From positions 192,062 through 256,061 of the forward strand of contig JAMFSS010000009.1 of the NCBI GenBank assembly GCA_026225415.1: a stretch of DNA of 64,000 bases. Reading direction: 5' to 3'. The notes beneath the pieces are model-generated. The model was not told the DNA's origin. It worked only from the letters and a program-made list of their open reading frames with translations, and searched no databases. The number at the start of each line of letters is the position of its first letter. The first letter of the stretch is position 1. The translations under genes and the position numbers were made by a program. Shown piece after piece: positions 3,693 to 51,824 of the stretch. Source of the DNA: Alphaproteobacteria bacterium (GTDB lineage: Bacteria > Pseudomonadota > Alphaproteobacteria > UBA9219).

Positions 3693-3805
3693 ATAAACGG
3701 GCAAAGGCGGACACGAAAAAATGCGGAGTTCGTGGAGCTGCATCTGTTGCGATTGCAACAAGTTGTAGTTCCACGCTCCGCATTTTTGTTTATTGAGTTG
3801 AAGGT

Positions 3806-3991
3806 TCAGGATAACGGTGTTGGGGGTCGGCGGCCGCTGATGACGCTGTAGATCAGGCTGGCGATAAACAGCACGACGAAGATAAGCGCGAGGAATTTGG
3901 CGATGCTGGCGAATTCCGCCGCCATGCCGCCAAAGCCCAGAAACGCCGCAAGAACGGCAAGGATAAAGAAAGTGATGACGTAATTTAACAT
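3806..3991 (-). CDS. DUF1328 (UPF0391) small membrane protein
   Basis: MLNYVITFFILAVLAAFLGFGGMAAEFASIAKFLALIFVVLFIASLIY matches the DUF1328 pattern, a typical general-stress-regulon member. Confidence 0.75.
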   Translation of the reverse strand: MLNYVITFFILAVLAAFLGFGGMAAEFASIAKFLALIFVVLFIASLIYSVISGRRPPTPLS

Positions 3992-4119
3992 GATGAGCCT
4001 CCAACCTTTTCTTGAATGTTTATTTCCTGGAAGCATGGTAGGGGCAGCCAAATAATTTTTCAGTGCCGCCCCGGCCAGGGAATGATCATGTTTCCCTAAA
4101 GGAATTTTTTTATGTTCCC

Positions 4120-4749
4120 TTAATGCGGCAATTCGGGTTTACCCTGATGCGCCACCAACAGATCATGCATGTCATTGGCATGTTCTTCTTCTTTTTCCAG
4201 AATGCCTTCCAGCATGCGGCGCGTGGTGGGATCCTTATCGCGGAAAAATTCGATGAGTTCGCGGTAATGTTCGCAGGCGATACGTTCGGCGACCAGATTT
4301 TCCTTGATCATATCCACCAAAGTTTCCGTATCCACATATTGCGAGGCGGCGCGCGATGTTAATGTGGCGGGATTGAAATCCGGCTTACCGCCCAACTGGT
4401 TGATACGTTCGCCGACCAGCTGAACATGAACCTGTTCTTCGTTGGCGTGGGTTGAGAATTCTTCCTTGATCGATTCACTGGCGATGCCGGCCGCCGCAAT
4501 CGCGTTCATGGTGTAACGCAGGACGCAGACGATTTCGGTCGCGAGAACCGATTGCAGAATGTTGATGGTTTGTTCAGGATCGCCTTTATAGGCCGGGGTT
4601 ATGGCGCCCTTGGCCAGATCCTGGCGCGCTTTTTCGCGCAGTTTTATCACATCGGTTAAAAAGGGTTTGTCGCGGTTGGCCGGTTTCGGCGTTTCACGTT
4701 GTTCGGTGGAAACGGTTTCAAGCGCTGGTTTCATTGGATTTTCTTTCAC
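4120..4749 (-). CDS. ferritin-like diiron protein (bacterioferritin/Dps superfamily)
   Basis: 209 aa with ferritin-like four-helix-bundle motifs (ExxH-type pairs: EEQVHVQLVGERI, EKEEEHANDMHDLL). Confidence 0.65.
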   Translation of the reverse strand: MKENPMKPALETVSTEQRETPKPANRDKPFLTDVIKLREKARQDLAKGAITPAYKGDPEQTINILQSVLATEIVCVLRYTMNAIAAAGIASESIKEEFSTHANEEQVHVQLVGERINQLGGKPDFNPATLTSRAASQYVDTETLVDMIKENLVAERIACEHYRELIEFFRDKDPTTRRMLEGILEKEEEHANDMHDLLVAHQGKPELPH

Positions 4750-4846: not shown

Positions 4847-7504
4847 TTACATATCCGGTTTTAAATCTTCATGCGGGATGTGCGCTTCAGGATGATGCAG
4901 ACCGGGCGGTGGTGATGTGTAGTTGTGCTGCGCCGCTTCCTTTTTTTTAAAATCCTGCCATTGCTGGTTTCTCTGGCTGGTGACAAAGGAAGCCGGATCA
5001 CCGGATTTTTTGGTAAGCGCAAAGGGTAAAATCCCCAAACCTGCGAAATTCGTTTTTGTATTGGCGGCCACGCTATGCATAGCCGTTCCTGGCGCCGTTT
5101 TGGTTGTTGCGGCTTTTACCGTTCCTTTTACCGCAGCAGCAGAAGCGGAAGCATGTGCGGTGCCCATCCCCGGCATTGCCACATGCCCCGGGGCGGCCAT
5201 CGCCGCGCTGTGCGTATGCAACATGCTATTGCCGAAGGAATGCCCTGCTGCTGCATGTGCGGTGGGCATTGTCACCCAATCCGCGCTTTTTATCGCGCCA
5301 TTCCTTATATCCGAATGGACGCCATGCATGATATCCGCATGTGCCACGGCATGATGCGGGAATAAATCGACGGCATGGAAGATGTCATGCGCGGGGTTTC
5401 CAGAATTCTGGTTTTGGTTATCATTATTGTCATCTCCTTCGCGACCGCGGGTTTCGTCGTGCGATGAAGATTGTTGTTCCTGACGGTCGTTTCCTGATCT
5501 GTCATTGCCTTCGTCGCGGGATGAATCCGGCTCTTCGCGACGACCTTCATCGCGCGATTCATCACGCGGATTATCTTGTTGGGAATCCTGGCGGTTATCA
5601 TCGCTCCTATCCTCGTTACGCGGTTCGTCATTACGATTTTCGTTCGTATTATCATTGCGGTTATCATTACCCTGATTAGCTTCGCTTTGCCTGTTATCCT
5701 GCGTGTCTTCATTGCGCGTTTGCTGATTGTCTTGCGACGCATTCTGGTCTGGCTGTTGGGTATTATTGTCTGGCGAGGTATTTTCATTGCCAGAGGCTTG
5801 GTTACGTGCGGGCTCATTCGCAGTCGGTTCGTTTATCGTTGGTTCGTTTGTGACTGGTTCGTTTGTCGTTGGTTCATTCGTGACAGGTTCGTTTACCCTC
5901 GGTTCATTTGTGACTGGCTCGTTTATTGTCGGTTCATTGGCCACAGTTTCGGTTGCCACAGGTTCGTTAACCACAGCTTCATTAACGCGTGGCTCCACAA
6001 CAACCGGTTCATTCGTTACGGGTTCCTGATACGGTTCCGCGACTATTTGCGTGTTGTTATCGGCAATTTCGGACGCCGCGCGTGGTTCGACCAGTTCGAC
6101 ATTTTGCGCGTTTGGTTCATTGCCTGTCGATGTGTTTTGCCCGGCTTCTGCATTAACAACCACCTGCCCGTCTGCCAATTCGGTGGCGGGCACAAGGATT
6201 TCATTCGACGCCTGTTCCACCGTCGCCAAAACATCGGGGGTAACGACGGTATTTGGTGCATCCTCGCTGGCTGAACCGCTTTCCAATTCATCTGTGTCCT
6301 GTACCGGAAAGGCAGGATTGATGCGTGCCGGATAGGCTGGCGCGGCATTGGCAGGCCCCGCCGCCCCTTGGGAGATGGGCATGAAATCGGTATAGCCCGA
6401 CGTGCTTGTATTGGGGATGGCCACGGCCAGGCTTTGGAGCCCTTCGGGCATTTGGTCGCCGATCTGTTGCGCGGCCTGTTCCGTTGGCACAGGGATAATG
6501 GGCACAATAACAGTATCCGGCCGTTTCGGTTGGCCGTTATTCGCCTGAAGCAATTCAGCCTGTGTCGCGACTTCCAATTTGGCCAGATTGTTTAGGCTTT
6601 GCATTCCGCCTTTTTTATCATCTTCGCGTTTTTGTGCTTCCTGCAAAACCGTCAGGCGGCGTTTTTCATCGTCATCCCTTTTCTGGAAGAATTGTTGTTG
6701 CTCGTGGAATTTTTTGTTTCTTAGCTTTTCTTCTTCCTGAAAAACAAGGCCGGCTGCTATGGCTGCGGCTTCGGCTTTTAAAATGGGGTGGCCGCCATTT
6801 TCATCCCTGACATAAAGGCCATAAGGATAATCGATGCGTGTTAAATAAGGCGGCACCGGCGGCAAATTAGGCGAGCGCAAAGCAGGCAAGCTTGTATCCG
6901 GCGGATTTAAAACAAGGTCGCGCGCGTCCATATCCGGTTTGTCTTTTTCATTGACATTAAACACCGATGCCCCGCCCATACCCATGGGGCGGCTGTCCCG
7001 AAAAGCATTTTGCAAAGGCAAAAGCGGTTGGCACAGAACCATTAAACCTGACGGAATTCCCATATCGGCCATAATCGCGCCGTCGCTGTCGGGCGGCACA
7101 TCGTAACGCACAAGGGTGTTTTCTTTGGTATCGAATGTCGCCAGCACCGCTTTTTCGGTCGGCACAGGCAAGGCGGTTGGCATCAACCGGGTGCGGCTGG
7201 ATGAAACGCGCACAAGGATTTGCTCGGTTGTTTGCGGCATATCCTGAACGACATTATCAATCATGTTCCATAAACGCCGCGCCTGACGCCCATCGTCATT
7301 TGTTTTGGGCCAGAAACGCGCCAGATCGTTTTTGACACGTTTATGCGATGTGATCACATCCCGTTCAAACGGATGTTGCCCCAGAAGATCGATATAACGC
7401 CCCAGCGGCGCGTCAAATTTTTCCTGTTCGACCATGACCGTATTTTGCATGTCGATATCAGGATCTGGCCGCGCCTTGGTCAGGATGGGTTGATCGGTAT
7501 TCAT
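4847..7504 (-). CDS. large low-complexity protein: globular N-terminal domain, Pro-rich and acidic/N-Q-rich disordered regions, about 20 copies of a 5-aa NEP(V/T)x repeat, His-rich C-terminus
   Basis: Uninterrupted 2.7 kb ORF on the minus strand. The ATG at 7504 (MNTDQPIL) is preceded by AAAGGAAC. No signal peptide. The repeat block is encoded by 15-bp tandem DNA repeats. Confidence 0.6.
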   Translation of the reverse strand: MNTDQPILTKARPDPDIDMQNTVMVEQEKFDAPLGRYIDLLGQHPFERDVITSHKRVKNDLARFWPKTNDDGRQARRLWNMIDNVVQDMPQTTEQILVRVSSSRTRLMPTALPVPTEKAVLATFDTKENTLVRYDVPPDSDGAIMADMGIPSGLMVLCQPLLPLQNAFRDSRPMGMGGASVFNVNEKDKPDMDARDLVLNPPDTSLPALRSPNLPPVPPYLTRIDYPYGLYVRDENGGHPILKAEAAAIAAGLVFQEEEKLRNKKFHEQQQFFQKRDDDEKRRLTVLQEAQKREDDKKGGMQSLNNLAKLEVATQAELLQANNGQPKRPDTVIVPIIPVPTEQAAQQIGDQMPEGLQSLAVAIPNTSTSGYTDFMPISQGAAGPANAAPAYPARINPAFPVQDTDELESGSASEDAPNTVVTPDVLATVEQASNEILVPATELADGQVVVNAEAGQNTSTGNEPNAQNVELVEPRAASEIADNNTQIVAEPYQEPVTNEPVVVEPRVNEAVVNEPVATETVANEPTINEPVTNEPRVNEPVTNEPTTNEPVTNEPTINEPTANEPARNQASGNENTSPDNNTQQPDQNASQDNQQTRNEDTQDNRQSEANQGNDNRNDNTNENRNDEPRNEDRSDDNRQDSQQDNPRDESRDEGRREEPDSSRDEGNDRSGNDRQEQQSSSHDETRGREGDDNNDNQNQNSGNPAHDIFHAVDLFPHHAVAHADIMHGVHSDIRNGAIKSADWVTMPTAHAAAGHSFGNSMLHTHSAAMAAPGHVAMPGMGTAHASASAAAVKGTVKAATTKTAPGTAMHSVAANTKTNFAGLGILPFALTKKSGDPASFVTSQRNQQWQDFKKKEAAQHNYTSPPPGLHHPEAHIPHEDLKPDM
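5815..6010 (-). repeat. coding 15-bp tandem repeat (consensus ggttcgtttgtgact on the + strand), about 12-13 units, encoding NEPVT-type pentapeptides
   Basis: Direct reading of the sequence. The units vary at wobble and second positions but keep the reading frame. Confidence 0.85.
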
Positions 7505-8188: not shown

Positions 8189-9106
8189 ATGACAATGCAA
8201 TCACCCTATGCGCCACCTGCGCCCCTTCACGATCATTCGCACACCCATGAATCGAACATCTCTGGCGTTAGCTGGGGCGCGGTTATTGCCGGCGGTTTTG
8301 CCGCCATGGCCGTTTCGGTTGTTCTGGTGATTTTGGGCAGCGGACTTGGCCTTTCCGCGTTTTCGCCATCCTCACAGGCTTCTGCCTTTCCTATGAAAGC
8401 GGCCTTGTGGATTGTCTTTACGCAATGGATCGCGTCCGGTTTCGGCGGTTATATCGCAGGCCGTTTGCGCACCAAATGGGTGCAAATCCATGATGATGAA
8501 ATTATGTTCCGGGATTCGGCACATGGTTTTCTGGCCTGGTCTTTGGCAACGGTTGTCGCCGCTTTTCTTACGTTTTCTGTTGCCACCATGATTGTGGGTG
8601 GCGGTTTGAAAGCAGCGACACCTGTTGTGGCTGCGGGAGCCGCCGGATCGGCGCACGAAATGGCAAAACCGGGCGCGCGTTTCAATGCAGGCGACGGTTA
8701 TTATGTCGATCTTCTGGTGCGCCCTTCGGCCACCACCAATGCGGCGCCTGTGAATGCGCAGGATTCAAATGCGGAAATCACGCGCATTTTATGGCAGGGC
8801 GCGAAAAATGGCGGTGTCTCGGATGACGACAAAGCCTATCTGGCGAAAGTTGTTGCCGCCCGCACAGGCATCAGCGATCAGGAAGCCAATGACCGCGTCA
8901 ACACCACCTTGCAGAAAATAAATGATGACAAGGAAACGGCCAAACAGAAAGCCGAAGCAGCCCGCAAGGCAAGTATGCATATGGCTTTTTATATGGCGTT
9001 CGCACTGGCTATCGGCGCGTTTATCGCCAGCATCGCGTCGGTTCTGGGTGGTCGTTTGCGTGATGAATATCATGCGGAATATCACGCCGCCAAGCGCGTT
9101 GTGTAA
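8189..9106 (+). CDS. hypothetical polytopic membrane protein
   Basis: Several TM helices. Start taken at MTMQSPY (AAGGAACAGA upstream). No family recognised. Confidence 0.55.
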   Translation: MTMQSPYAPPAPLHDHSHTHESNISGVSWGAVIAGGFAAMAVSVVLVILGSGLGLSAFSPSSQASAFPMKAALWIVFTQWIASGFGGYIAGRLRTKWVQIHDDEIMFRDSAHGFLAWSLATVVAAFLTFSVATMIVGGGLKAATPVVAAGAAGSAHEMAKPGARFNAGDGYYVDLLVRPSATTNAAPVNAQDSNAEITRILWQGAKNGGVSDDDKAYLAKVVAARTGISDQEANDRVNTTLQKINDDKETAKQKAEAARKASMHMAFYMAFALAIGAFIASIASVLGGRLRDEYHAEYHAAKRVV

Positions 9107-9125
9107 TTTCCAACGAGTCTAAAAA

Positions 9126-9159
9126 TCACGGCGTGCCCCAACAGGGCACGCCGTTTTTG
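9126..9159 (+). terminator. rho-independent terminator
   Basis: cacggcgtgcccc-aaca-ggggcacgccg stem followed by TTTTTGT. Confidence 0.7.
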
Positions 9160-9310
9160 TATGCCCGCGCCCCGGGGCTCCGACAAGGCGCAAACTTACA
9201 CGCCGCTAACTTATAGAGGCCTACTGCCAAGGTGAATCCTTATCCGCGCGCTGTCATTGTCCCTTTGCACTCATGAAGGGTGCTGGTAACTCTTTCCAAG
9301 GAGATTTCTT

Positions 9311-9544
9311 ATGAATAACGAACAAGTCAAAGGCAATTGGGATCAATTCGCCGGCAAGATAAAACAAAGCTGGGGCAAATTGACAGATGACGATGTCACG
9401 CTTTTGAAAGGCAATGCCCAGGAATTTTTCGGCAAGCTGAAAGAAAAACACGGCATCGAAAAAGAAAAAGCCGAAGAACAGTTGAAGGAATTTAGCAAGA
9501 GCTGTGGCGATTGCTATACCCCCGACAGCCGTAAAGCCGCGTAA
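9311..9544 (+). CDS. CsbD-family general stress protein
   Basis: MNNEQVKGNWDQFAGKIKQSWGKLTDDDV... is the canonical CsbD signature. AGGAGA RBS. Confidence 0.85.
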   Translation: MNNEQVKGNWDQFAGKIKQSWGKLTDDDVTLLKGNAQEFFGKLKEKHGIEKEKAEEQLKEFSKSCGDCYTPDSRKAA

Positions 9545-9562
9545 CACCGGTAGATAAAAATG

Positions 9563-9595
9563 GGCCCGGCATGGTGATCATGCCGGGCTTTTTTA
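9563..9595 (+). terminator. rho-independent terminator (a second palindrome at 9606-9638 serves the convergent gene)
   Basis: gcccggcatg...catgccgggc stem plus a T6 tract. Confidence 0.75.
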
Positions 9596-9661
9596 CATAC
9601 AAGAATGCGCCGGTATATCCAAAAATATACCGGCGCATCTTACCACTCCATGGTATCGGGG

Positions 9662-10201
9662 TTACTTGGTGTTGGTTTCCTGATCGACGATTGCGCCGTT
9701 AACCGACTTGGTTGTCGATGTGGTGGTGGTCGAATTCATTAAACCCTGCGGGTCTGTGGTTTTTTCAGACTTTTCGGTCGATATGACGTTGCCCTTGCTG
9801 TCGACATTAACGTTGGTGCTGGCTTTTTCCTTCACATTCGTGCCGTCTGTGTTGGTGTGGGTGACGGTTTTGGTTTTCTTAAAACCGCCATTATCCTTGT
9901 CCTTATATTCGCTCGTGCTTTTATCCGTGGATTTATGCAACGCACCTTTCGAAGTGGTACTTTGCTTCTTGATGGTTTTGGTGGTCTTGCCGTCGGAACC
10001 GACTGTCAGATCCACCTTTTTATCATTGGTGGTTTTGCTGCCGTCCGCGCCATTTTGTTCGTCGGTCGTGGTGGTTTCATAACCGCCATTGGCTTTTTGT
10101 TGCACGTTGGTTTGCGAATCCGCGCTGGCATCCGCCGCATGCGCGGTATGGATGAGCGAGAGAGCGGTAACGGCGACCAGAAGAGCGAGAGGTTTTTTCA
10201 T
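9662..10201 (-). CDS. secreted Thr/Lys-rich hypothetical protein
   Basis: Signal peptide MKKPLALLVAVTALSLIHTAHA. The mature part is low-complexity (T, K, D, S). Confidence 0.5.
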   Translation of the reverse strand: MKKPLALLVAVTALSLIHTAHAADASADSQTNVQQKANGGYETTTTDEQNGADGSKTTNDKKVDLTVGSDGKTTKTIKKQSTTSKGALHKSTDKSTSEYKDKDNGGFKKTKTVTHTNTDGTNVKEKASTNVNVDSKGNVISTEKSEKTTDPQGLMNSTTTTSTTKSVNGAIVDQETNTK

Positions 10202-10433
10202 TGGTGTTTCCTTATTATCTGTTGATGCAACCCATACGGGAGGAGTCAATAATCACTACCGCCGCCATGGGTAAAAAATCAAAAGGGACAGCGGGGCAGG
10301 AAATAAGGAACCTGCAAATATCTTTATGCGTCTTGGTTTATCCACAATTTATTTTTCATGCGCCTTGTCGTCTGTTGGCTTTACAGGACTTGGTGCATTC
10401 TAAATCATCGAACACCATCCACAGGAGTCCGCC

Positions 10434-10664
10434 ATGCAACAGTCACCCGCCTTTGATGCGCAGAAAAACTTTAATTTGTCCAACATGCTGTTCACCGAAA
10501 TGCAGAAATATCTGAATGCGTACAGAACCGGCGCGTACAGCGAGAGCAAGCGCGGCCAATTGCGTGCCGCCTATAAGGTTGACAAGAAGCCAAAGCAAAC
10601 CGAAATGATCGGTGAATGTTTCGGTTTTAAATTCAGCCCCGACAGCGCGCATGCCCGCCAATAA
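10434..10664 (+). CDS. small hypothetical protein (76 aa)
   Basis: AGGAG SD before the ATG. No recognisable domain. Confidence 0.4.
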   Translation: MQQSPAFDAQKNFNLSNMLFTEMQKYLNAYRTGAYSESKRGQLRAAYKVDKKPKQTEMIGECFGFKFSPDSAHARQ

Positions 10665-10849
10665 TTTTGGGGGCTGGAGTAGCTAAGCGAACTGTTATTT
10701 ATGCCTATGGGCGCAAGGTAGCGATTTTAATGCTGTAGGAGCAAACGTCGCCCCGGGTCATCCTCGGTTTGCCGTTGGCCACCAAAGCCTGGAGGATATC
10801 AAGCAGGCCGCCAGTGTGGTTATCTGTTTTGAAAGACAAGGAACCCATA

Positions 10850-11326
10850 TTATATCCCGCCTGAAAAGCCTGTGCCTTCGGGCAGAACGGCCAGCGTAAA
10901 CCAGAGCTGTTCGACCTTTTCGACGACGGCGAGCGACTCTTGCAAATCGCTTGGTTTGACGATGTAGCTGTTGGCATGCAGCGCATAGCTGGAAACAACG
11001 TCTTGTTCGGCGCTGGAACTGGAAAGAACCATGACGGGAATAAGTTTAAAGGCTTCGTTTTTCTTAATCTCGCTTAAAACTTCCTTGCCGCTCATTTTAG
11101 GGAGGTTCAAATCGAGAAGAATAATATCCGGCTTCATGGCTTGTGTGTATGGCTCTTCGCGACCGAGGATCGCCAACGCTTCCTCGCCGCTGGTGGCGAT
11201 CATCATTTCATACGGCATTTTGGCCTGACGAAAAGCGCGTTTGATCATCAAAACATCACCCGGATTGTCTTCGACAATCAGGATCAAAGCGGGTCTTTGT
11301 TTTTTTTGCAATGTCTTCATAACCAT
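10850..11326 (-). CDS. stand-alone response regulator receiver (CheY-like)
   Basis: Acidic pocket ILIVEDNPGD, phospho-Asp context IILLDLNLPKMSG, and conserved K in IVKPS. Confidence 0.85.
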   Translation of the reverse strand: MVMKTLQKKQRPALILIVEDNPGDVLMIKRAFRQAKMPYEMMIATSGEEALAILGREEPYTQAMKPDIILLDLNLPKMSGKEVLSEIKKNEAFKLIPVMVLSSSSAEQDVVSSYALHANSYIVKPSDLQESLAVVEKVEQLWFTLAVLPEGTGFSGGI

Positions 11327-11340
11327 AATTTGCCCTAACT

Positions 11341-14157
11341 CTATGCCTGCTTTGCGATCGTGAATTGAAAAATACTGCCCTTGCCGGGGGTAGAGGTGAC
11401 ATGGATTTTGCCGCCATGATTTTCGACAATTTTTTTACAGATCGCCAACCCCAAGCCGGTGCCTTTAATTTCGTCCCAACTATGCAAACGGCGGAACGGT
11501 TCAAAAACTTTGTCGACGAAATCATTTTCGATGCCGATGCCGTTATCCTGAACCGACAAGGCGATCATGTCGCCCTGATCCACAGCCGCCACCGTAACGA
11601 CGGGGATTTGGCCTTCGGGTTGATATTTGATCGCGTTGGCAATCAAATTCTTCATTAGGCGCATAAATTGCACACTGCTGCCTTCGAAGGACGGTATGGG
11701 GCCGACGGTTATTTGGGCCTGTTTCTCGCGGATAAGTTCCGAAATATTATCCAACGCGCGCTTCAATTCCGCCGTGCCGTTCACTTTATTTTTCGTCAGA
11801 TTGCTTTTATCGACGCGGGCGTAATCCAGCAAATCCCTGACCATCGCGCGCATACGCTGGCTCGCCTCGACAATGGAAGTCAGGTAATTTTTTCCTTCAT
11901 CATCCAGACTGGCGGCGTAATCTTGCGACAGAATATCGCTGAGACCCGAGATCATGCGCAAGGGTTCCTGCATATCGTGCGAAGCGACATAGGCAAAGCG
12001 TTCCAGTTCGGTGTTGGAATTCACCAATCTTTGCATCAATTGTTCGCGCTCCGTGATATCGCGGTTGATTTCGAGCGTGCCGATTTGCGCGCCCTTCTTG
12101 TCGCGTTGCACAACCCATCGGCTGGTCACGACTATCTTTTGGCCATTCTTTTTGGTGTGAACCAGCTCGCCTTCCCACTTATCTTTGGCCTGCAATTCGG
12201 CCTTGATATTTTCCAACGTATCGGGAAACGCCGTTTGTAAAATATCATGCGATATATGGCCCACAACATCCACGGCCGGCATGCCGTAAGTCAGTTCGGC
12301 GCCCTTGTTCCAGAAAACGATTTCGTCTTTCTGGTTGCGGACGATAATCGCATCATGCGCAAGATCGAGAAGCGACGCCTGGTTTTGCAGCTCTTCCTTC
12401 AGCTGTTTGCTTTCCGTGATATTTTCTATTTGCGAGATAAAATATTTGGGGTTGCCATCGCCATCGCGCACCAATGACACATTCAAAAGAGCCCAGATAA
12501 TGTGGCCGTCCTTGTGGAAATATCTTTTCTCCATCTGATAGGTGCTCAGGGTTCCTGCCAGCATTTGTTCAACGAAGTTCAGGTCTTTTTGCAAATCTTC
12601 CGGATGGGTGATGGATTGAAAATTCGTCGCAATCATTTCTTTTTCGCTGTACCCCAACATCGCGCAAATGGCTTGATTGATTTCCAGCCACTTGCCTTCG
12701 GTCGAAACCAAAGCCATGCCGATAGGCGCATAATGCATGGAAAGGCGGAATGTTTCTTCGCTCTGCCGCAACCGGTCATGGGCTGTGGCATCATTCAAAG
12801 CCGCCATCAGGACGCCGGCGATAAAGGTCAGGGTTGTGATATGGTGGTCATAAAAGGCGTTCACTTCCGATGACATGATTTTAAGGACGCCGACAACGAT
12901 GCCCTGCTGCCGCAACGGCACGACAATCATCGAGGCTACATTGATCTTGCGGCAGGCATCCTTGTTCACGCGCGGATCAAATTCCGTATTGTCGCATTTA
13001 AACGCTTTGTCTTCGACCAAACATAAACCCGACAGGCTGTTGGCGATGGGCATGCGAAAACCGACATTGCCCGCCAGATTGCCGCCGCAGGCGCGATAAA
13101 CCATGTCGTCGCCTTCGATTATTGCGATCGCGCTGCCCGTGGCACCCGCAATGGCACCCATGTGATCGACGATCACATTCATGACATGTTGTTGATTATG
13201 ATGCGATTGGGCGATCTCGCTTTGGATCCTGACGACATCCATCAGGCGCTCATGATCCCTGCGCATAACACTCAGGGCTTTTTTCTCAAGCTTGTGCGCG
13301 TATTTCCACCGGAAAGCCAGATATGTGCAAAGCCCCATGATAAAGGCGATGATCAATCCGCTGATAAAAACTGTTTGCCACAAATTATTCGCGTGCATAA
13401 CGGCGAAACTTTTTGTAGCCGCAACATCAATCGTCCATGTTTGGTTGGCGATGCGCAGGGGCATGGTGACGAGCGTGTCCGTGTCCACTTTCTGATTTTC
13501 TTCCTGCTCGGTGAAAAAAGGCACGCCGTCGGATTTAAGAACGATGCTCCAGCGGTAATTAGCTTCAAGATCGAGGAAGTCTTTGAAAAAATCGTTGATA
13601 TTAAGGGCGGCGACCATATAGCCGTTAAAAACGCCGTCAACATAAACGGGGGTATAAGCCAGCAACCCCTTATAGCCTTGGGAAAGTTGCAGCGGGGGGC
13701 TTAGGGTTAGGGTGTTCCTGGCCTCTGCGTCTTTCAGCATATCCTGACGTTCGGGCGTGGCGCGAATATCCATACCGATGACAGACTGATTGGGGTCGCG
13801 CGGTTCGACCCACTGCACATGATAGGTTGAGTCCACCCATTCGATAGCGCCGAGGCCTTTTTGCGCGCCGACATGATTGGCGGCATCTTGCTGCCACAAC
13901 GCATAGGGCGTGCCGCGTTCGGCCTCCCACCGCTCAGACATATATTTAAGGGCGCCAAGCTCGCCTTTGACGGCGCGATTGATCAGGTCGCTGACTTTCG
14001 TGGATTTTTCGGCGACGGCGGCTTTGAGAGATTTGGCTTCGTCGCATTTTATTTTATACGCCAGCGCATCGGCTCCGACAGTGACACAGGTAAAAACCAC
14101 CGCGGCAAGAAAAAACTGTTTGCGCTTATCGGCAAAGGGCATTTTCAATCGCTCCAT
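11341..14157 (-). CDS. sensor histidine kinase: periplasmic CHASE domain, TM, GAF, two PAS domains, HisKA, HATPase_c
   Basis: CHASE-like block (IEWVDSTYHVQWVEPRDPNQSVIGMDI...LSPPLQLSQGYKGLLAYTPVY), H-box ASHDMQEPLR, G-box GTGLGLAICKKIVENHGG. Confidence 0.85.
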   Translation of the reverse strand: MERLKMPFADKRKQFFLAAVVFTCVTVGADALAYKIKCDEAKSLKAAVAEKSTKVSDLINRAVKGELGALKYMSERWEAERGTPYALWQQDAANHVGAQKGLGAIEWVDSTYHVQWVEPRDPNQSVIGMDIRATPERQDMLKDAEARNTLTLSPPLQLSQGYKGLLAYTPVYVDGVFNGYMVAALNINDFFKDFLDLEANYRWSIVLKSDGVPFFTEQEENQKVDTDTLVTMPLRIANQTWTIDVAATKSFAVMHANNLWQTVFISGLIIAFIMGLCTYLAFRWKYAHKLEKKALSVMRRDHERLMDVVRIQSEIAQSHHNQQHVMNVIVDHMGAIAGATGSAIAIIEGDDMVYRACGGNLAGNVGFRMPIANSLSGLCLVEDKAFKCDNTEFDPRVNKDACRKINVASMIVVPLRQQGIVVGVLKIMSSEVNAFYDHHITTLTFIAGVLMAALNDATAHDRLRQSEETFRLSMHYAPIGMALVSTEGKWLEINQAICAMLGYSEKEMIATNFQSITHPEDLQKDLNFVEQMLAGTLSTYQMEKRYFHKDGHIIWALLNVSLVRDGDGNPKYFISQIENITESKQLKEELQNQASLLDLAHDAIIVRNQKDEIVFWNKGAELTYGMPAVDVVGHISHDILQTAFPDTLENIKAELQAKDKWEGELVHTKKNGQKIVVTSRWVVQRDKKGAQIGTLEINRDITEREQLMQRLVNSNTELERFAYVASHDMQEPLRMISGLSDILSQDYAASLDDEGKNYLTSIVEASQRMRAMVRDLLDYARVDKSNLTKNKVNGTAELKRALDNISELIREKQAQITVGPIPSFEGSSVQFMRLMKNLIANAIKYQPEGQIPVVTVAAVDQGDMIALSVQDNGIGIENDFVDKVFEPFRRLHSWDEIKGTGLGLAICKKIVENHGGKIHVTSTPGKGSIFQFTIAKQA

Positions 14158-14746
14158 AGAATTGTTCTTTGGAAAGCTGGTTTTTATCGAGATAAGCGCA
14201 AACACCCTGAGCCAAAGCTTTCTTTTCAATCGCCTCGCTGGGCAAGCCGGTCACAAAAATGATGGGAGGCATGGCTTCTTTGTCCTGCTTCATTTCCGCA
14301 AGCACCTGAAAACCGTCGATGCCATACATCATGAAATCGAGAATGACACAGGCCGGTTTATGGTCGGCGAAGGCTTCGAATCCGGTTTTGCCATTCGAGG
14401 CTTCGAAAATTTCAAATTTTCGATTGGGCATTTGATCGAGCCACCTTTTGTACGTCAGCCGGTCATGGCGGCTGTCATCCACAATCAAAATCGGGATGGC
14501 CTTGAACATATTTGACTTGGGCGTCAGGCAGATGCCCTGTCTTCCCTGTGTCTCGGTAAAAAATTCGATGCCTTCGGCTTCAAGCGCCGATTGGATAGCG
14601 CGCAAGGTGCTAAGCTTGGGGTCGCGATGCGCCTGACGTTCGATATTGTTCAATGTCGCAATTGATATGCCGGCCTTTTGAGCCAGCTCTTTCTGACCCA
14701 ACCCTATCATGGCGCGCGCGGCGCGGATTTGTTCAACCGATATCAT
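14126..14746 (-). CDS. XRE-family HTH + receiver domain response regulator (N-terminal HTH_3, C-terminal REC)
   Basis: The N-terminus (MISVEQIRAARAMIGLGQKELAQKAGISIATLNNIERQ) is a Cro/C1-type HTH. REC motifs follow (ILIVDDS, ILDFMMYGIDG, YLDKNQ). Confidence 0.8.
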   Translation of the reverse strand: MISVEQIRAARAMIGLGQKELAQKAGISIATLNNIERQAHRDPKLSTLRAIQSALEAEGIEFFTETQGRQGICLTPKSNMFKAIPILIVDDSRHDRLTYKRWLDQMPNRKFEIFEASNGKTGFEAFADHKPACVILDFMMYGIDGFQVLAEMKQDKEAMPPIIFVTGLPSEAIEKKALAQGVCAYLDKNQLSKEQFYGAIENALCR

Positions 14747-15061
14747 GATCTAGCTTTCACACATAAATCTGTTACAAAACTAGGTTTTTATTATCACAGG
14801 GAAAAGTTAAGGGCTAACTAAAAATAAGGCCTTTGGCGGATCAATTTAGCGATATTCAGGAGTTTAAAACCTGATTCTAGGTCTTTGTCCCTAATGCGCA
14901 GCCTTGTTTCACAAAGGGGCGGGCGGTTTATGCCAGTTGGACAACAAAATAGTGTCCCATAGCAGCAATAAAAAAATATACACAAGGACACGCACCAATT
15001 TCAGCGACACCGACTTATGCTTTTCATAAATGGCGTCGCTGAAATCAAGCGCGGCTTAAAA

Positions 15062-15421
15062 TTAGGCTATTGCTGCCTTCTTCAGTTTCGACAGCGCGCG
15101 AATTTTAACGCGAACACTGGCGGGCTTAGCAGCAGCCTTCATCAACTCACCAGTTGCAGGGTTACGAACCAGCGTACCAGCCTTACGCGCCGCAACCTTG
15201 CGAAGCGTAACCTTTAACAGACCGGGCAAGGTAAATTCGCCAACACCGCGCGGATGCACCGAACCGAGGATCACAGATTCCAGCGTATTGAAAACACCCA
15301 CAGCAGTCTTCCGGGGAATTTCATTCTGTTCAGCGATCAGATTGATAAGCGCCGATTTGGTAATTGTTTCCTTGACCGCACGAACGGTCGCAACAGGCTT
15401 GCTGATTTTCTTTTTAGCCAT
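15062..15421 (-). CDS. HU/IHF-family DNA-binding protein with a Lys-rich N-terminal extension
   Basis: INLIAEQNEIPRKTAVGVFNTLESVI...GEFTLPGLLKVTLRKVAARKAGTLVRNPATGE matches the HU fold, including the arm motif R-N-P-x-T-G. Confidence 0.75.
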   Translation of the reverse strand: MAKKKISKPVATVRAVKETITKSALINLIAEQNEIPRKTAVGVFNTLESVILGSVHPRGVGEFTLPGLLKVTLRKVAARKAGTLVRNPATGELMKAAAKPASVRVKIRALSKLKKAAIA

Positions 15422-15916
15422 GACTTCTCCAATAGATTGTTGACGCTCCTAAGGTACGATGATTCGCGGAGGCCTATTGTTGTTAAACGTCCCCAGCCCA
15501 ATGCACAAGTAACGACTTTTTGCGGCCAAAACACAGGCGGCCACAAAGCCAGGATTAGACATTCCCCTGATGATTGAATAATAGGATAGGGTTTCAATAG
15601 CAGGATCGAAAAATAGCCCCTCAAGAAACATATTACGGCGGAAATGCATCGCAGCATGAAAGAGCAGATCAATGAAGCGATAGGTTAGGACACACTGACG
15701 TGAAAAGCTCAATCCGTTACCAAACCTGCCTTCAACGACTATTTTCAAGCTCACTCGCACAATAAAGAAGGCTAGCACTCAATCTACAAATTAGACGTTC
15801 AGTCTTTCCCCCATTTTTCCCCCACTTTTGAGAAGTGTTCTTTCATCGTTCTGCACATATCCATAGAATGTTAAAAACAGCACATTAATAAAAGCGCTAT
15901 ATTTTATTAGGAGAAA

Positions 15917-15991
15917 TGGTGCTGCCGATAGGAATTGAACCTACGACCCCGTCATTACCAATGACGTGCTCTACCCCTGAGCTACGGCAGC
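15917..15991 (-). tRNA. tRNA-Thr (anticodon GGU)
   Basis: Cloverleaf folded by hand: acceptor GCUGCCG, anticodon loop UUGGUAA, T-arm GTAGGTTCAATTCCTAT, encoded CCA. Confidence 0.85.
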
Positions 15992-16121
15992 AATTGGGTG
16001 GGCGGCAGGGTAAACCCCGCAGCGAGGCCGCTTTGTGCCACAACCCTACGGCTTGCGCAAGAAGCTGTGTTTTCTTTCGCAAAATTTGCTAGATTCGGCC
16101 GTTCCGAATCCAGAGGCCGCC

Positions 16122-20450: not shown

Positions 20451-21182
20451 TTATCGCGGCTGCAATAGTTCCGCAACGGGGCGTGGCGTTGAACAGGTTG
20501 GAAACCGCACGGGCAGTACTATGGCTTCTTTTCGCGCATATATATGGTCATCCATAGCGACCATTTCGCCCCCGAAAGAACGGCTTATGCAACTGGGCGA
20601 CAAGGCATCGACCATTCGGAACCCCGCCTGCGATAATAAAGAGAGCATGGCGATAAAGGCGGCGTTCCCCGCCCCCATGTAATCGCTATAAACACTCAGC
20701 CCGATAAATAAACCGCCCGATTGTATCCCCACAAGGCCAGCCAGAAGTTCGCCGCCGGCATAAACTTCCACCGAATGGGCAAGGCCATCTGCATGTAATT
20801 GCTTCAGGAATTTTTTTGTTTCGCGCCCTATCCAGGGGTCAAGATCGGGATCATTCCAATCGCGCTGCAAGGCGCAATTATAAAGGACGGAAGAAAAACA
20901 TTGGTTGGCGGTAAAGGTAAATTCATTTCTTAAAATCATCCGCCGTTGATTGCGTGAAAAATCTTTGTGTACAGGAATGATTTCCACATAATCGGGCAAA
21001 CAGCCCATAAGCCCATCCCGCCCTTCTACCGTAAAGCAACCAATCTGGTACAGGCTGAGCAAGGCTTCGGCGGTGGGATGAAACAAATCCCATTTCCGCA
21101 TCGTGTCCTTGTGAAGTTGTTCATCGCATTCTAAAGTGGAAAAACGATAATCTATGGCTTCGAGTCTGTCCTGATTGTGCAT
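20451..21182 (-). CDS. aat: leucyl/phenylalanyl-tRNA-protein transferase
   Basis: HSVEVYAGGELLAGLVGIQSGGLFIGLSVYS aligns with E. coli Aat [31 protein letters not shown]. Confidence 0.7.
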   Translation of the reverse strand: MHNQDRLEAIDYRFSTLECDEQLHKDTMRKWDLFHPTAEALLSLYQIGCFTVEGRDGLMGCLPDYVEIIPVHKDFSRNQRRMILRNEFTFTANQCFSSVLYNCALQRDWNDPDLDPWIGRETKKFLKQLHADGLAHSVEVYAGGELLAGLVGIQSGGLFIGLSVYSDYMGAGNAAFIAMLSLLSQAGFRMVDALSPSCISRSFGGEMVAMDDHIYARKEAIVLPVRFPTCSTPRPVAELLQPR

Positions 21183-21283
21183 TTTGTTTTTTAAAAATAG
21201 TAAAAGCGACAACGCCAAAATAACAGCGCAAATCAGGGCAATCTGTCAACCGGATTAAAAGCCGAAATCAGCCTTAATTATGG

Positions 21284-22390
21284 TTAAACATTAAATTTGA
21301 AATGGAACACATCGCCGTCATGGACAAGGTAATCCTTGCCTTCCTGACGCAGTTTACCGGAATCGCGCGCGCCGGACTCACCGTTACAGGCAACAAAATC
21401 ATCATAGGCGATTGTTTCCGCGCGGATGAAACCGCGTTCAAAATCGCTGTGGATGGCGCCTGCGGCTTGCGGGGCGTGTGCGCCGCGTTTCACTGTCCAG
21501 GCGCGGGCCTCTTTCGGCCCCACCGTGAAAAACGTCAATAAATCCAGACGGCGATAACCGGCGCGGATGATCTTGTTCAAGCCCGGTTCTTCCAAACCCA
21601 ATGATGACAAAAACTCTTTCTTTTCGTCGGCGCTTTCCAATACCGCGACTTCCGATTCAATCGCGGCGGTGATAATCACACATTCGGTGCCTTCGGCCTT
21701 GGCTTTGGCCGCGACTTTTTCCGACAATGCATTGCCGGTGGCCGCATGTTCTTCGGCAACATTGGCGACATACAAAACCGGTTTGGCTGTGACCAGCGCC
21801 AGCTGTTTTAAAATTTCTTTTTTCTCTGGCGACAATCCCGCCAATAATGTCCGCGCCGGTTTACCGTCGCGTAATGCCGTCAAGGCGGGTTCGATGATTT
21901 CCAATTGTTCGACAGCTTCCTTGTCGCCGCCCTTGGCTTTTTTCTGCACACCGGTCAGACGTTTTTCCAAACTATCCAAATCGGCCAACATCAATTCGGT
22001 TTCCACCGTTTCGGCGTCGCGGATCGGGTCAACCGATCCTTCGACATGGGTCACATCGCCACCTTCAAAACAACGCAACACATGGATGATGGCATCGGTT
22101 TCGCGGATATGCGCAAGGAATTGATTACCCAATCCTTCGCCGCGTGCGGCACCGCGCACCAAACCGGCGATATCGACAAATTCCAATTGGGTCGGAATGA
22201 TTTTGGCCGAGGTCGCAATCTCCGCCAATTTATCCAAACGCGGATCGGGCACCGCCACGCGGCCCACATTGGGTTCGATGGTACAGAACGGATAATTGGC
22301 CGCCTGCGCCGCAGCCGTCGCGGTGAGCGCGTTGAACAAGGTCGATTTACCGACATTCGGCAGACCCACAATACCGCAATTGAAACCCAT
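21284..22390 (-). CDS. ychF: ribosome-binding ATPase YchF
   Basis: GIVGLPNVGKSTLFNALT P-loop and a TGS domain at the C-terminus. Confidence 0.95.
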   Translation of the reverse strand: MGFNCGIVGLPNVGKSTLFNALTATAAAQAANYPFCTIEPNVGRVAVPDPRLDKLAEIATSAKIIPTQLEFVDIAGLVRGAARGEGLGNQFLAHIRETDAIIHVLRCFEGGDVTHVEGSVDPIRDAETVETELMLADLDSLEKRLTGVQKKAKGGDKEAVEQLEIIEPALTALRDGKPARTLLAGLSPEKKEILKQLALVTAKPVLYVANVAEEHAATGNALSEKVAAKAKAEGTECVIITAAIESEVAVLESADEKKEFLSSLGLEEPGLNKIIRAGYRRLDLLTFFTVGPKEARAWTVKRGAHAPQAAGAIHSDFERGFIRAETIAYDDFVACNGESGARDSGKLRQEGKDYLVHDGDVFHFKFNV

Positions 22391-24378: not shown

Positions 24379-24400
24379 TCGACGCGGGGTTGAGACAAAA

Positions 24401-24429
24401 ACGGGGAGAGAAATCTCCCCGTTTTTTTG
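24401..24429 (+). terminator. rho-independent terminator of rpsD
   Basis: cggggagag-aaat-ctctccccg stem plus a T7 tract. Confidence 0.8.
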
Positions 24430-24575
24430 TGCCTTACTAGGTAAAATTTATTGCCAGCATTACCACATGGAAAAACGCCTAAAAGGTTGCTAGAATCACA
24501 AGAAGCAGGCAATGATGGCTGATAGAATTGTGCATCACCCAATGTTGCCTTCCCTTCTGCATAGCAAAACCAACA

Positions 24576-25421
24576 ATGACCGATCAAAACCCCTATAAGG
24601 ATTTCACCAATAGGTTGAAGCTGTTCATCAGCAAGCATCCGGCATTAATAACGACTACACTCAGCAACATTTTTACGATGCGCCTTATCGGCAATAAGAC
24701 CCATGGCGACTTAGCTGAAATAGCGATAGCAGAATTTATCAACCAATATATGTATGATTTCAAGTCACTGCATGTGGGCAAAGACTTATACCGCACTAAA
24801 TCCAGAGAAGAAGATATTACTATTACAAACGAAATTACTAAAGTTCAATTTCCCGTCAGCCTCAAAGCATATGGTGATGGCCCCCTTCAATTATCAACAG
24901 ATAAAAACACCTTGATGTACCCACGACTTATGAAAGAGGTTAATCATACTATTGAAGGCCGCACAAGAATTGATGCAGTTTTTGCTGATCCTGCATTTTC
25001 CGTATTTTCACAAATAAATGTATTGCCACTTATCTATGATGAGAAAAAACAAAGATGTAACATTTTGGTTTTTGATTATGAGGCAGCTCGCACTCAAACG
25101 GCAAAAATAGAGCGCGCCCATGAAGGCAGTGGGAGGAAGCACCCCGTTTTTCGATTTTATGATGCCAATAATGATTATATTTGCGAAGTAAGATATGGTG
25201 ATGCCGCAGCAAATGCTTTACAGCGCGGGCTATGGACACACACCAAAAATGCATTAAAGCACTTTGATAGCATTACGAGTGGTTGGGTTGATTACTCTCA
25301 CAACAAGATATTAGTACAACTTTTTTCTCATGCGCTAGTGTCAACAAGTGCTGGACATGATAGAGCACTCATTGAAATCAAAAAAGATATTCAGCAATTA
25401 AAAGAAAGAAATCAGCTATGA
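24576..25421 (+). CDS. hypothetical protein in a low-GC island, a candidate restriction endonuclease (possible PD-(D/E)xK: ...GDLAEIAIAEF... / ...EEDITITNEITK...)
   Basis: About 281 aa. Marked drop in GC relative to its flanks. Stop/start overlap (ATGA) with the downstream DNA methyltransferase. No family confidently recognised. Confidence 0.45.
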   Translation: MTDQNPYKDFTNRLKLFISKHPALITTTLSNIFTMRLIGNKTHGDLAEIAIAEFINQYMYDFKSLHVGKDLYRTKSREEDITITNEITKVQFPVSLKAYGDGPLQLSTDKNTLMYPRLMKEVNHTIEGRTRIDAVFADPAFSVFSQINVLPLIYDEKKQRCNILVFDYEAARTQTAKIERAHEGSGRKHPVFRFYDANNDYICEVRYGDAAANALQRGLWTHTKNALKHFDSITSGWVDYSHNKILVQLFSHALVSTSAGHDRALIEIKKDIQQLKERNQL

Positions 25422-26554
25422 ACCAAATGGCTCTACAAAGAGAGCTTTTCGCAGCGAACTACCCCACTGCCCCTTCCACAGAGGGGATTAAGTATGCTGG
25501 TTCAAAGTTAAAATTATTACCTCAGATTTTATGGCTCGCAGGAAAAACCGATGCGAAGATAATTTTTGATGGCTTTGCTGGATCGACCAGGGTCTCACAA
25601 GCACTCGCCAAATATGGGTACCAAGTGATTTGCAATGACCGCGCCATTTGGTCAGAGATATTAGGGCGGTGCTATTTAAAGGCGGGGTCGAAAACTAAGT
25701 ACGAAACGCTTATTAACGATTTAAACACATGCAAACCTAGGGATGGTTGGTTTACAGAGCATTACGGCGGCGACCCATCCGTAATTGATATAGAAAATAC
25801 CATAAAAATGCCGTGGCAGATTCATAACACACGAAAACTTGATGGAATAAGAGAAGAAATAGACCGTCTTAGTCTTGATGCTAATGAAAAAGCAGTTGCC
25901 TTGACTAGTCTTATGATGGCCCTTGATCAAGTAGATAGCACATTGGGGCACTTTTCGTCGTATCTGCGAGAATGGTCGCCCCGTTCATTTAAGCATATGA
26001 AGTTGCAAATCCCCGACATTATTGATTGTGAGGATATGCATCAAGTTACTAATGGGGATGTCTTTGATATAGCAAAAGGCGTTAATGCTGACTTAGCCTA
26101 TTATGACCCACCATATGGCTCTAATAATGAGAAAATGCCGCCATCCCGTGTTCGTTACTCCGCCTATTATCATGTGTGGACTACAGTTTGCCTTAACGAC
26201 AAACCTGAAGTTTTTGGCAAGGTCAATCGACGCGTCGATACGCGCGATGATGTAGCAGCTTCTGTATTTGAAGAGTTTCGTCGTAATGACAGCGGAAGCT
26301 TTATAGCGGTCGAAGCAATTCATAAGCTTATTAAAGACACCCCAACTCAATATATCATCTTATCCTACAGCTCAGGCGGAAGAGCAACGGCACGTGAATT
26401 AAATGAAGCCATGAAAGATGCCGGAACCCTTATTGAAGTTATCGAAATGGATTATAAAAGAAATGTAATGGCAGGAATGACATGGACGAATGAATGGCTT
26501 CGTGATGCACAAGAACAAAATAGGGAGTTCTTGTTTTTATTAGAAAAACATTAA
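25418..26554 (+). CDS. D12-class N6-adenine DNA methyltransferase
   Basis: IKYAGSKLKL (motif X), FDGFAGSTRV (motif I, FxGxG), NDRAIW, and the catalytic motif IV DPPY (AYYDPPYGSNN). 378 aa, low GC. Confidence 0.8.
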   Translation: MNQMALQRELFAANYPTAPSTEGIKYAGSKLKLLPQILWLAGKTDAKIIFDGFAGSTRVSQALAKYGYQVICNDRAIWSEILGRCYLKAGSKTKYETLINDLNTCKPRDGWFTEHYGGDPSVIDIENTIKMPWQIHNTRKLDGIREEIDRLSLDANEKAVALTSLMMALDQVDSTLGHFSSYLREWSPRSFKHMKLQIPDIIDCEDMHQVTNGDVFDIAKGVNADLAYYDPPYGSNNEKMPPSRVRYSAYYHVWTTVCLNDKPEVFGKVNRRVDTRDDVAASVFEEFRRNDSGSFIAVEAIHKLIKDTPTQYIILSYSSGGRATARELNEAMKDAGTLIEVIEMDYKRNVMAGMTWTNEWLRDAQEQNREFLFLLEKH

Positions 26555-26569
26555 ACAAACTAAACCAAC

Positions 26570-26607
26570 AAAAAAAAGCCTGACTGCAAAACAGTCAGGC
26601 TTTTTTA
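26570..26607. terminator. bidirectional rho-independent terminator (A-tract / stem / T-tract)
   Basis: aaaaaaaa-gcctgactg-caaaaca-cagtcaggc-tttttt sits between convergent genes. Confidence 0.85.
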
Positions 26608-26626
26608 TTCTCAAATATAAAACCGC

Positions 26627-27424: not shown

Positions 27425-28648
27425 CTAAACTTTCTTCAAAACGGCTTCCGAAATACTGTTCGGAAGCTGCAAGGTCTTCTCATACTTCGTCAGCAAAGGC
27501 AGAATGACGAGAAAATGGAAGAAGTAATAAAAGGTCGCGAATTGCCCGATCGAGATATACGGCTCTTCAGCAGGTTGCGAACCGATAATGCCCAACAACA
27601 CCGTATCCAACGCGAATATCCAGAAGAACGCGCGGAAGGTAGGCCGGAACAAAGCCGAACGCACTTTCGACCGATCCAGCCAGGGCAGAACCAGTAACAT
27701 GACAATCGCGCCAAACATCGCACACACGCCGCCCAGCTTGGACGGAATTGAACGCAAGATGGCGTAGAAAGGCAGGAAGTACCATTCCGGCACGATATGC
27801 GCAGGCGTCGACATAGGGTTCGCCGGAATATAATTATCCGGATGCCCCATATAATTCGGGTTGTAACAAACCACCGCCGCATAGAAAATCAGGAAGATGG
27901 AAAGACCGAACAAATCCTTGACCGTATAATAAGGATGGAACGGCACGGTGTCCTTGTCCGATTTCGGTTCGATGCCCAGCGGGTTGTTGGAACCGGTGAT
28001 GTGCAATGCCGCGATATGCAGAACCACAACGCCGATCAAAACGAACGGCAAGAGATAATGCAAAGCAAAGAAACGGTTCAGTGTCGGGTTATCAACCGAG
28101 AACCCGCCCCACAACCATGTCACGACAGCCTTACCCACAACAGGGATGGCGGAAAACAGATTGGTGATAACGGTAGCGCCCCAGAAAGACATCTGACCCC
28201 ATGGCAACACATAGCCCATAAACGCGGTCGCCATCATCAACAACAAAATCACCACGCCGAAAATCCACAATAATTCGCGTGGATTTTTGTACGACCCTTA
28301 AAACATGCCGCGGAAGATATGCACATAAACGACGATAAAGAACATCGACGCGCCATTGGCATGCACATAACGCAACAACCAGCCGCCATTCACATCGCGC
28401 ATAATGCGTTCGACCGAATTAAACGCGTGATCGGTCGAAGGCGTATAATTCATCGCCAAAAAAATGCCCGACGCGATCATGACGATCAGCATCACCAAAG
28501 ACAAAGCGCCGAAATTCCACAAATAGTTGAAATTGCGCGGTGTTGGGAATTGTCCATATTCCTTGTTCATGAACGAGAACAAAGGCAAACGTGAATCGAC
28601 CCATTCAATAACAGGATTTTTAAAAGGTGTACGGGTGCCGTGTGACAT
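27425..28648 (-). pseudogene. petB: cytochrome b interrupted by an in-frame TAA (ORF fragments 28298-28648 and 27425-28270)
   Basis: Translation reads ...[23 protein letters not shown]..., where canonical cytochrome b has RGxYYGSYK. The stop lies at 28298-28300 (minus strand) in place of a Tyr codon. Confidence 0.8.
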
Positions 28649-29945: not shown

Positions 29946-30225
29946 AAATGACCAAATCATACAATTGTATTTACACGTTCAGGTTGCAATTGGCCGTCGA
30001 ACATGAGGGTATGAAAGACGCCCCACAGGCCAAAAGTCAGAAAAACGGGCTTTGTCAGAGCGATAGTTCGAAATTTGAACCAATCTGTTGCCATTTTATT
30101 CACAATATATCATATTGTTTTTGCTATGTAATTTCCGTATTTGTTCATCATTCCTTAAAGCTTTTGGCCTATTCTGGGCTTATCCGAACCCCCTGGTTCT
30201 CAACTTTTTTAGTAAGGAGATCACT

Positions 30226-30387
30226 ATGCGTAACATGATCAACCGCTTTATGAAATCTGAAGAAGGCGCGACCGCCATTGAATATGGCCTGATCGCCTCG
30301 CTGGTCGCTGTGGCGATCGTTGCCGCCCTGACCGCCCTTGGTGGTGGTCTGAAGGGTGTGTTCACGACCATTACAACCAGCCTTTAA
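30226..30387 (+). CDS. flp: Flp-family type IVb pilin
   Basis: Flp motif ...EEGATAIEYGLIASLVAVAIVAAL... with AGGAGA RBS. Confidence 0.9.
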   Translation: MRNMINRFMKSEEGATAIEYGLIASLVAVAIVAALTALGGGLKGVFTTITTSL

Positions 30388-30479
30388 GAGAACCCAGGCT
30401 AATGGGGTACGGGGGTGCCGATCTTCGGGTCGGCATCTCCCCCGCCTGGCTCTGCAGCTCATGAAAGTGGAGAAGAAAG

Positions 30480-51595: not shown

Positions 51596-51824
51596 AGGGC
51601 ACGAAGGTTACAAATGAATTACCAACAATCAAGAAAAACACGATTCTTTTAACGAAAATCCGGCTTTCTTGCCGCCAAAACCGGTTTTTTACAAGAGAAC
51701 ACGATAGATAAAATACCCGATAAATTGCATCTTCGTTCTTATGCGGAAATGGTGGAAGTCGCATCGAACCTGTCGTATCTTGATTCCCTCTCTCTGATTC
51801 ATGCCTCGCGCTGCTCCGGTTTTC

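Follow-up and report, generated by a model that had tools for sequence, protein, structure and literature searches.

What are the two AT-rich genes that lie between the housekeeping genes rpsD and petC in an uncultured alphaproteobacterium, and how did they come to be there? The locus belongs to a 64,000-nucleotide stretch of contig JAMFSS010000009.1, hereafter called the window, whose coordinates are used throughout unless another contig is named. An initial annotation had described a low-GC island holding a nuclease-like gene and a DNA methylase gene, and had left two interpretations side by side: a compact Type II restriction–modification (R-M) system with a PD-(D/E)xK-type nuclease, or a new kind of defence or toxin pair associated with a methylase. 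We found that the island is very probably a horizontally acquired, intact Type IIP R-M cassette, which consists of a restriction endonuclease gene (R) and a DNA methyltransferase gene (M). Judging from its sequence, this cassette is mobile and selectively maintained, and represents an uncharacterised member of an already known R-M family that carries the database label SspI.

An intact two-gene cassette of foreign composition

The R gene (24576–25421, + strand, ATG start) encodes a 281-amino-acid Type II restriction endonuclease that belongs to the SspI-labelled family and has a predicted PD-(D/E)xK fold. The M gene (25418–26554, + strand) encodes a 378-amino-acid alpha-group (D12-class) N6-adenine DNA methyltransferase, which was identified by its motifs and by its Pfam and PADLOC matches. 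Both open reading frames (ORFs) are full length and intact. An alternative TTG start is present for R at 24528; the ATG is favoured by the N-termini of the homologs and by the position at which DNA homology begins. As read directly from the sequence, and as the initial annotation had reported, the two genes overlap by the four nucleotides ATGA (25418–25421, + strand), which contain the TGA stop codon of R and the ATG start codon of M. This overlap suggests that R and M are translationally coupled. The identical 4-nt overlap was found in four other loci (L081, L167, L168 and L170), and the order R-ATGA-M also occurs in cultured Neokomagataea strains and in one Parvibaculum genome, in yet other contexts. 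Among the former, NBRC strains of N. thailandica and N. tanensis (L168 and L169) have the 74% identical cassette.

The whole span of the island, from the terminator of rpsD to the terminator common to M and petC, covers positions 24397–26606, the low-GC part extending from about 24430 to 26560. Its GC content is 0.38–0.43 across approximately 24400–26600, against 0.51–0.56 on either side, and the minimum 1-kb GC of the entire window (0.413) is located inside it. The percentage of GC at the third codon position (GC3), expressed as a fraction, is 0.355 for R and 0.385 for M, against 0.58–0.69 for seven neighbouring genes (ychF, the AFG1-like ATPase gene, rpsD, petC, petB, petA and a SpoU-methylase gene). 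The description of a low-GC two-gene island between rpsD and petC was therefore confirmed. The encoded proteins had also been described as rich in Lys, Asn and Ile, which does not hold, as their contents of these residues (K 6–7%, N 5–6%, I 7–8%) are not notable.

We then compared the locus with 80 petC-bearing loci, 52–78% identical, retrieved from genome contigs by a scan with cytochrome c1. The best cytochrome c1 relatives (70–78% identity) came from uncultured Alphaproteobacteria. In none of these 80 loci was R, M or rpsD found within 8 kb of petC, and the cassette is therefore absent from these relatives. Together with the gap in GC3 (0.36–0.39 vs. 0.58–0.69), this absence argues for a foreign origin. 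Among the relatives with long contigs, the four closest (L004–L007; positions 8700–11800) have petC directly followed by genes encoding a DUF924 protein, an Amidase_3 protein and a glycosyltransferase. The orthologs of these genes in the window are located at 51002–51595, 49897–50712 and 48895–49680, respectively, i.e. 22–25 kb off. As none of the 80 loci, moreover, has rpsD in the vicinity of petC, the R-M island is situated at a synteny breakpoint.

Linkage, mobility and selection

R and M are adjacent, separate genes that are inherited together. A scan of metagenomes gave 80 R loci, and R is followed by an M homolog (55–72% identical), encoded on the same strand, in all of the 76 loci with at least 150 nt of downstream sequence; in the remaining four, the sequence ends 55–95 nt past R. 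Among the 47 loci with enough flanking sequence, the GC content of the cassette is lower than that of its flanks by at least 0.05 in 36 cases. The others are close to the GC of their flanks, and three of them (L119–L121) are slightly higher.

Close copies of the cassette are found in unrelated contexts. In one of them (L081; 95% amino acid identity for R and 89% for M), near secE-nusG, the cassette has an IS1-family transposase gene on one side and an acyltransferase gene on the other. In another (L167; 92% for R and 88% for M), it adjoins pyruvate kinase. The blastn similarity to the window covers 24571–26554 for the former and 24559–26549 for the latter, with 81–83% nucleotide identity. As the DNA shared with these loci comprises the two ORFs and at most 17 nt upstream, the mobile unit is a bare two-ORF cassette, and the locus offers a clean case of a minimal R-M cassette that moves as two ORFs alone. 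A tblastn search with R against collections of plasmid and phage records gave no match.

The ratio of nonsynonymous to synonymous substitutions (dN/dS), computed against the close copies, is 0.015–0.026 for R and about 0.04 for M, dS being near saturation. These values indicate strong purifying selection on both proteins, R being the more conserved. With more than 70% identity across several phyla and a dN/dS of about 0.02, R is a restriction enzyme conserved unusually strongly, above its methylase.

Two kinds of loci call for a separate description. In L081, the IS1-family transposase gene (5119–5964; Pfam DDE_Tnp_IS1, E = 3.5e-07) ends 36 nt ahead of R and is a possible vehicle for mobilisation of the cassette. 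This ORF had been considered as a putative paralog of R, both proteins having 281 amino acids, and was rejected as such since it encodes a transposase unrelated to R. In addition, three phage-like contigs of IMG/VR (L083, positions 3124–4534; L084; L085) encode a 265-amino-acid homolog of R (57% identical) with no D12 methylase within 5 kb. A family-B DNA polymerase and a RecA/UvsX-like gene are present on contigs of this type as well, and an ORF related to Methyltransf_24 or O-methyltransferases overlaps the start of the phage-contig R homolog.

The endonuclease: family, predicted fold and candidate active site

The initial annotation could name no family for the nuclease. On the contrary, R matches the PADLOC model REase_II PDLC03568, a REBASE-derived "Type II restriction enzyme" profile, over profile positions 4–277 of 281 (E = 4e-143), and its homologs form 3,837 clusters at 90% identity in a large protein collection. 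The best 120 of these homologs are 72–100% identical to R and originate from Parvibaculum, Nitrospira, Terriglobia, Phycisphaerae and others. When clustered at 50% identity, the family has only 272 representatives, many of them fragments, among 1.84 billion proteins, and is therefore compact. One member from Neokomagataea (P0114, 74% identical to R) bears the UniRef name "SspI". Given the PADLOC match and this compact family of homologs, R is not without a family, and its sequence places it in a recognised family of Type II restriction endonucleases.

Neither R nor a profile built from 50 R sequences found a relative in sequence searches of Pfam, NCBIfam and PDB, and a Pfam scan of ten divergent members returned nothing but a sub-threshold match to DUF4143. 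In the survey of the folds of Type II enzymes by Orlowski and Bujnicki (2008), SspI was likewise a singleton family with no fold assigned (PMC2441816); the R family resembles it in having neither a Pfam model nor a solved structure.

The AlphaFold2 model of R, computed with 50 homologs, has a mean predicted local distance difference test (pLDDT) score of 81.4 and a predicted template modelling (pTM) score of 0.78. A Foldseek search with this model gave no significant match; the top-ranked structures, Hjc, SwaI and HinP1I, are members of the PD-(D/E)xK superfamily, and most of the structural neighbours cut short palindromes to leave blunt ends. The predicted core fits the alpha-beta-beta-beta-alpha-beta fold of this superfamily.

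Conservation was assessed on an alignment of R with 23 divergent members of the family, the most distant being 26% identical. Residues G44, E48, G68, S95, K97, Q105, T108, N213, Q216, R217, G218 and W220 are invariant, and at least 90% of the sequences share D80, H66, K69, R73, Y99, K110, K188, R206 and Y207. In the model, E48 is carried by helix 43–58, D80 opens strand 81–85 and S95-L-K97 is part of strand 91–99. From the invariant residues and their places on the secondary structure of the model, we infer an active site of the form E48...D80...S95-x-K97, a variant of PD-(D/E)xK, in which the invariant E48 on the preceding helix would likely serve as a third metal ligand. The conserved motif NALQRGLW (213–220) may take part in DNA recognition.

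Compared with the PD-(D/E)xK enzymes ThaI, NaeI, SwaI, MspI, HinP1I and EcoRV, R shows 9–14% identity, without a significant sequence or Foldseek match, and represents a separate family, whose C-terminal half contains a long terminal helix as well as the invariant NALQRGLW motif. The model, combined with E48, D80, S95-x-K97 and NALQRGLW, amounts to a proposal of fold and active site for a widely used commercial enzyme family. What is new here is that a family without a fold in the 2008 classification now has a predicted PD-(D/E)xK fold, along with candidate active-site residues.

The methyltransferase

M matches the Pfam family PF02086 (D12 methyltransferase) with 67.8 bits (cutoff 22; E = 1.6e-18) and, over its full length, the PADLOC model MTase_II PDLC03342 (E = 8e-155). 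Its motifs YAGSK (26–30), FDGFAGS (motif I, 50–56) and DPPY (motif IV, 230–233) include those (AGSK, FxGxG, DPPY) from which the initial annotation had rightly recognised a D12 N6-adenine methyltransferase. Since motif I precedes motif IV, M falls in the alpha group. On the basis of the above-threshold profile match and this motif order, M is a D12-class N6-adenine DNA methyltransferase. The names of its homologs are generic only, e.g. "DNA adenine methylase".

With Dam, DpnM and M.EcoRV, which are alpha-group D12 enzymes, M shares the above-threshold PF02086 match and the order FxGxG ... DPPY. It differs in not being an ortholog of Dam, in having no PDB relative in a sequence search and in never being an orphan in the loci examined. 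An orphan methylase or an ortholog of Dam (GATC) was considered and rejected: M scores 11.8 bits against TIGR00571, for a cutoff of 114.85, is always paired with R and is absent from the 80 petC-bearing relatives.

Putative target site

SspI, from Sphaerotilus sp., is a Type IIP enzyme that cleaves AAT^ATT (REBASE). Its activity was reported to be sensitive to N6-methyladenine (m6A) (PMC3459991). The target of R and M is likely AATATT, cut blunt as by SspI. This assignment draws on the UniRef label of the 74% identical homolog P0114, on the compactness of the family and on the m6A methylase partner, which matches the m6A sensitivity of SspI; the blunt cut is suggested by the same label and by the structural likeness to blunt-cutting enzymes. 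The cassette is also similar to the SspI system in its Type II organisation of two genes and in the size of its nuclease, about 280 amino acids. It differs in its host, which is an uncultured alphaproteobacterium and not Sphaerotilus, and the likeness is drawn via a database label and not from the authentic sequences of R.SspI and M.SspI. Apart from the 2008 classification and the report that SspI is sensitive to m6A, literature searches on the SspI sequence, AATATT methylomes and Sphaerotilus produced nothing that could be used.

The near-invariant Tyr99 of the R family is located two residues past the putative catalytic Lys97. The commercial high-fidelity version of SspI carries the substitution Y98F, which may offer a lead.

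We also counted AATATT in the window and found 10 occurrences, against 23.2 ± 4.5 in shuffled sequences. This depletion is real yet non-specific, as shown by the ranks given below.

Proposed functioning of the cassette

A single transcript would start in a 150-nt leader past the rpsD terminator, with the endonuclease first and the methyltransferase second. A sigma-70-like promoter candidate for this operon was detected by a consensus scan at 24468–24496 (+ strand; TGGAAA-17-TAGAAT with an extended –10 TG, 9 matches out of 12). Neither a strong promoter nor a Shine-Dalgarno sequence was found upstream of R, and the cassette contains no gene for a controller (C) protein. The operon would also end at the terminator of the convergent petC. 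Owing to the ATGA coupling, the methylase would be made whenever the nuclease is made. M, which uses S-adenosylmethionine (AdoMet), would place a methyl group on the N6 of an adenine within a short palindromic site of the host chromosome. R, presumably acting as a homodimer, would cut the same palindrome when it is unmethylated, for instance in incoming phage or plasmid DNA, and cleavage would involve K97, S95 and Mg2+ coordinated by E48 and D80. The cassette would probably still be active in this way in its present host.

Alternative explanations

Several observations weigh against the proposal of an intact cassette of SspI type. The link to the authentic R.SspI passes through one third-party UniRef name, that of P0114. 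The observed/expected ratio of AATATT in the window (0.47) ranks only 24th among the 64 palindromes, most palindromic hexamers being depleted; in the flanks of carrier loci (227 kb), the ratio is 0.68 vs. 0.90 in controls (1 Mb), with a rank of 23 out of 64. In R, the second acidic position of the canonical (D/E)xK motif is occupied by the invariant Ser95; MspI, HinP1I and Cfr10I also show non-acidic replacements of this kind. The promoter call is weak, such sites being rarer in the region than in shuffled controls. Finally, the petB gene close by is interrupted by a nonsense codon (described below), which points to possible errors or pseudogenes in the assembly or the genome, R and M being themselves intact and retaining all family-invariant residues.

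The alternative that survives best keeps a genuine Type II R-M cassette and gives it a site other than AATATT, the name "SspI" then being a loose annotation transfer. The single UniRef name, the absence of specific AATATT avoidance in the window and in the carrier contigs, and the generic names of the M homologs speak for it. However, the family is compact, most of its members being more than 70% identical, and restriction enzymes that similar normally share their specificity. Moreover, enzymes that cut short palindromes bluntly predominate among the structural neighbours, and the m6A partner fits the sensitivity of SspI. We consider a different site to be rather unlikely, though worth keeping in mind.

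A more elaborate account, which takes R as a ThaI/NaeI-like PD-(D/E)xK enzyme with an unusual E...D...S-x-K site, the locus as a bare, recombinase-free cassette that moves across phyla and landed between housekeeping terminators, and the cassette as a participant in a genome rearrangement at the synteny breakpoint, seems improbable as a whole.

It is slightly less probable still that the cassette no longer restricts, being either a dead R with a de facto orphan methylase or a purely selfish element maintained by post-segregational killing. R-M cassettes often decay after transfer, a core gene in the vicinity (petB) is interrupted by a nonsense codon, and no strong promoter or Shine-Dalgarno sequence precedes R. 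Nevertheless, neither ORF is truncated, R has a 100% identical counterpart among database proteins (P0001) and has lost none of the residues that are invariant in the family, and the dN/dS of 0.015–0.04 against close copies indicates that selection continues on both proteins.

The second interpretation of the initial annotation, a new kind of methylase-associated toxin or defence system in which the first ORF is not a classical restriction endonuclease, is highly improbable. It could appeal to the lack of a Pfam, NCBIfam or PDB sequence match for this ORF, to the phage contigs in which its homolog has no D12 methylase, and to the status of SspI as a singleton family without a fold in 2008 (PMC2441816). 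No evidence in support of such a pair was obtained. The first interpretation is retained and agrees with the PADLOC matches of both proteins, with the strict linkage of R and M and with the predicted fold of R. None of the findings that the initial annotation had named as refuting was made: R shows no homology to a non-nuclease family, all of the 80 relatives lack the two genes and M is not an orphan.

An ancestral residence of R and M in this lineage, with a native low GC and no horizontal transfer, could be argued from the absence of an integrase, tRNA, flanking repeat or insertion sequence at the island in the window, but is just as improbable, as R and M are missing in all 80 petC-bearing relatives, their GC3 is about 0.25 below that of every neighbouring gene, and nearly identical copies recur in unrelated surroundings and phyla, their homology being confined to the ORFs.

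Borders of the island and surrounding region

The flanking genes were identified by their Pfam domains (Ribosomal_S4 and S4 for rpsD; Cytochrom_C1 for petC, encoding cytochrome c1). Both of these core genes end in intrinsic terminators, in agreement with the initial annotation. The left boundary is the terminator of rpsD (24397–24426, + strand), detected by a terminator scan as a bidirectional hairpin of the form A5-stem-T7, which corresponds to the inverted repeat I3 (13-nt arms, 100% complementarity). The right boundary is a bidirectional terminator common to the convergent genes M and petC (26572–26606; A6-stem-T6), which corresponds to the inverted repeat I2 (15-nt arms, 100% complementarity, 5-nt loop). 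A search for direct or inverted repeats flanking the island turned up these two hairpins only, and no tRNA gene, integrase or insertion sequence was found at its borders within the window.

The nearby petB gene (27425–28648, – strand) contains an in-frame TAA codon at 28298–28300. The protein sequence reads RGMF*GSYK, against RGMFYGSYK in one of the closest relatives (L004), the position being a Tyr in the relatives. This codon divides cytochrome b into ORFs of 116 and 281 amino acids, and could result from a sequencing or assembly error, from a pseudogene or from read-through.

Three lesser low-GC patches (0.44–0.47) are present in the window, at 14000–16000, 20800–21400 and 29950–30400; one of them adjoins a tRNA-Thr gene (15917–15991) and another directly follows the SpoU-methylase gene. 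An ORF of 1056 amino acids at 51801–54971 (+ strand) has no Pfam match, overlaps several ORFs of the opposite strand and may not be a real gene.

Finally, some palindromic hexamers are nearly absent from the window outside 24430–26610. GTGCAC occurs once, for 15.6 expected occurrences from dinucleotides or 5.3 from a Markov-4 model, and CTCGAG, GAGCTC, CCTAGG, TCTAGA and CTATAG have zero occurrences. These near-absences may reflect other restriction systems of the host.

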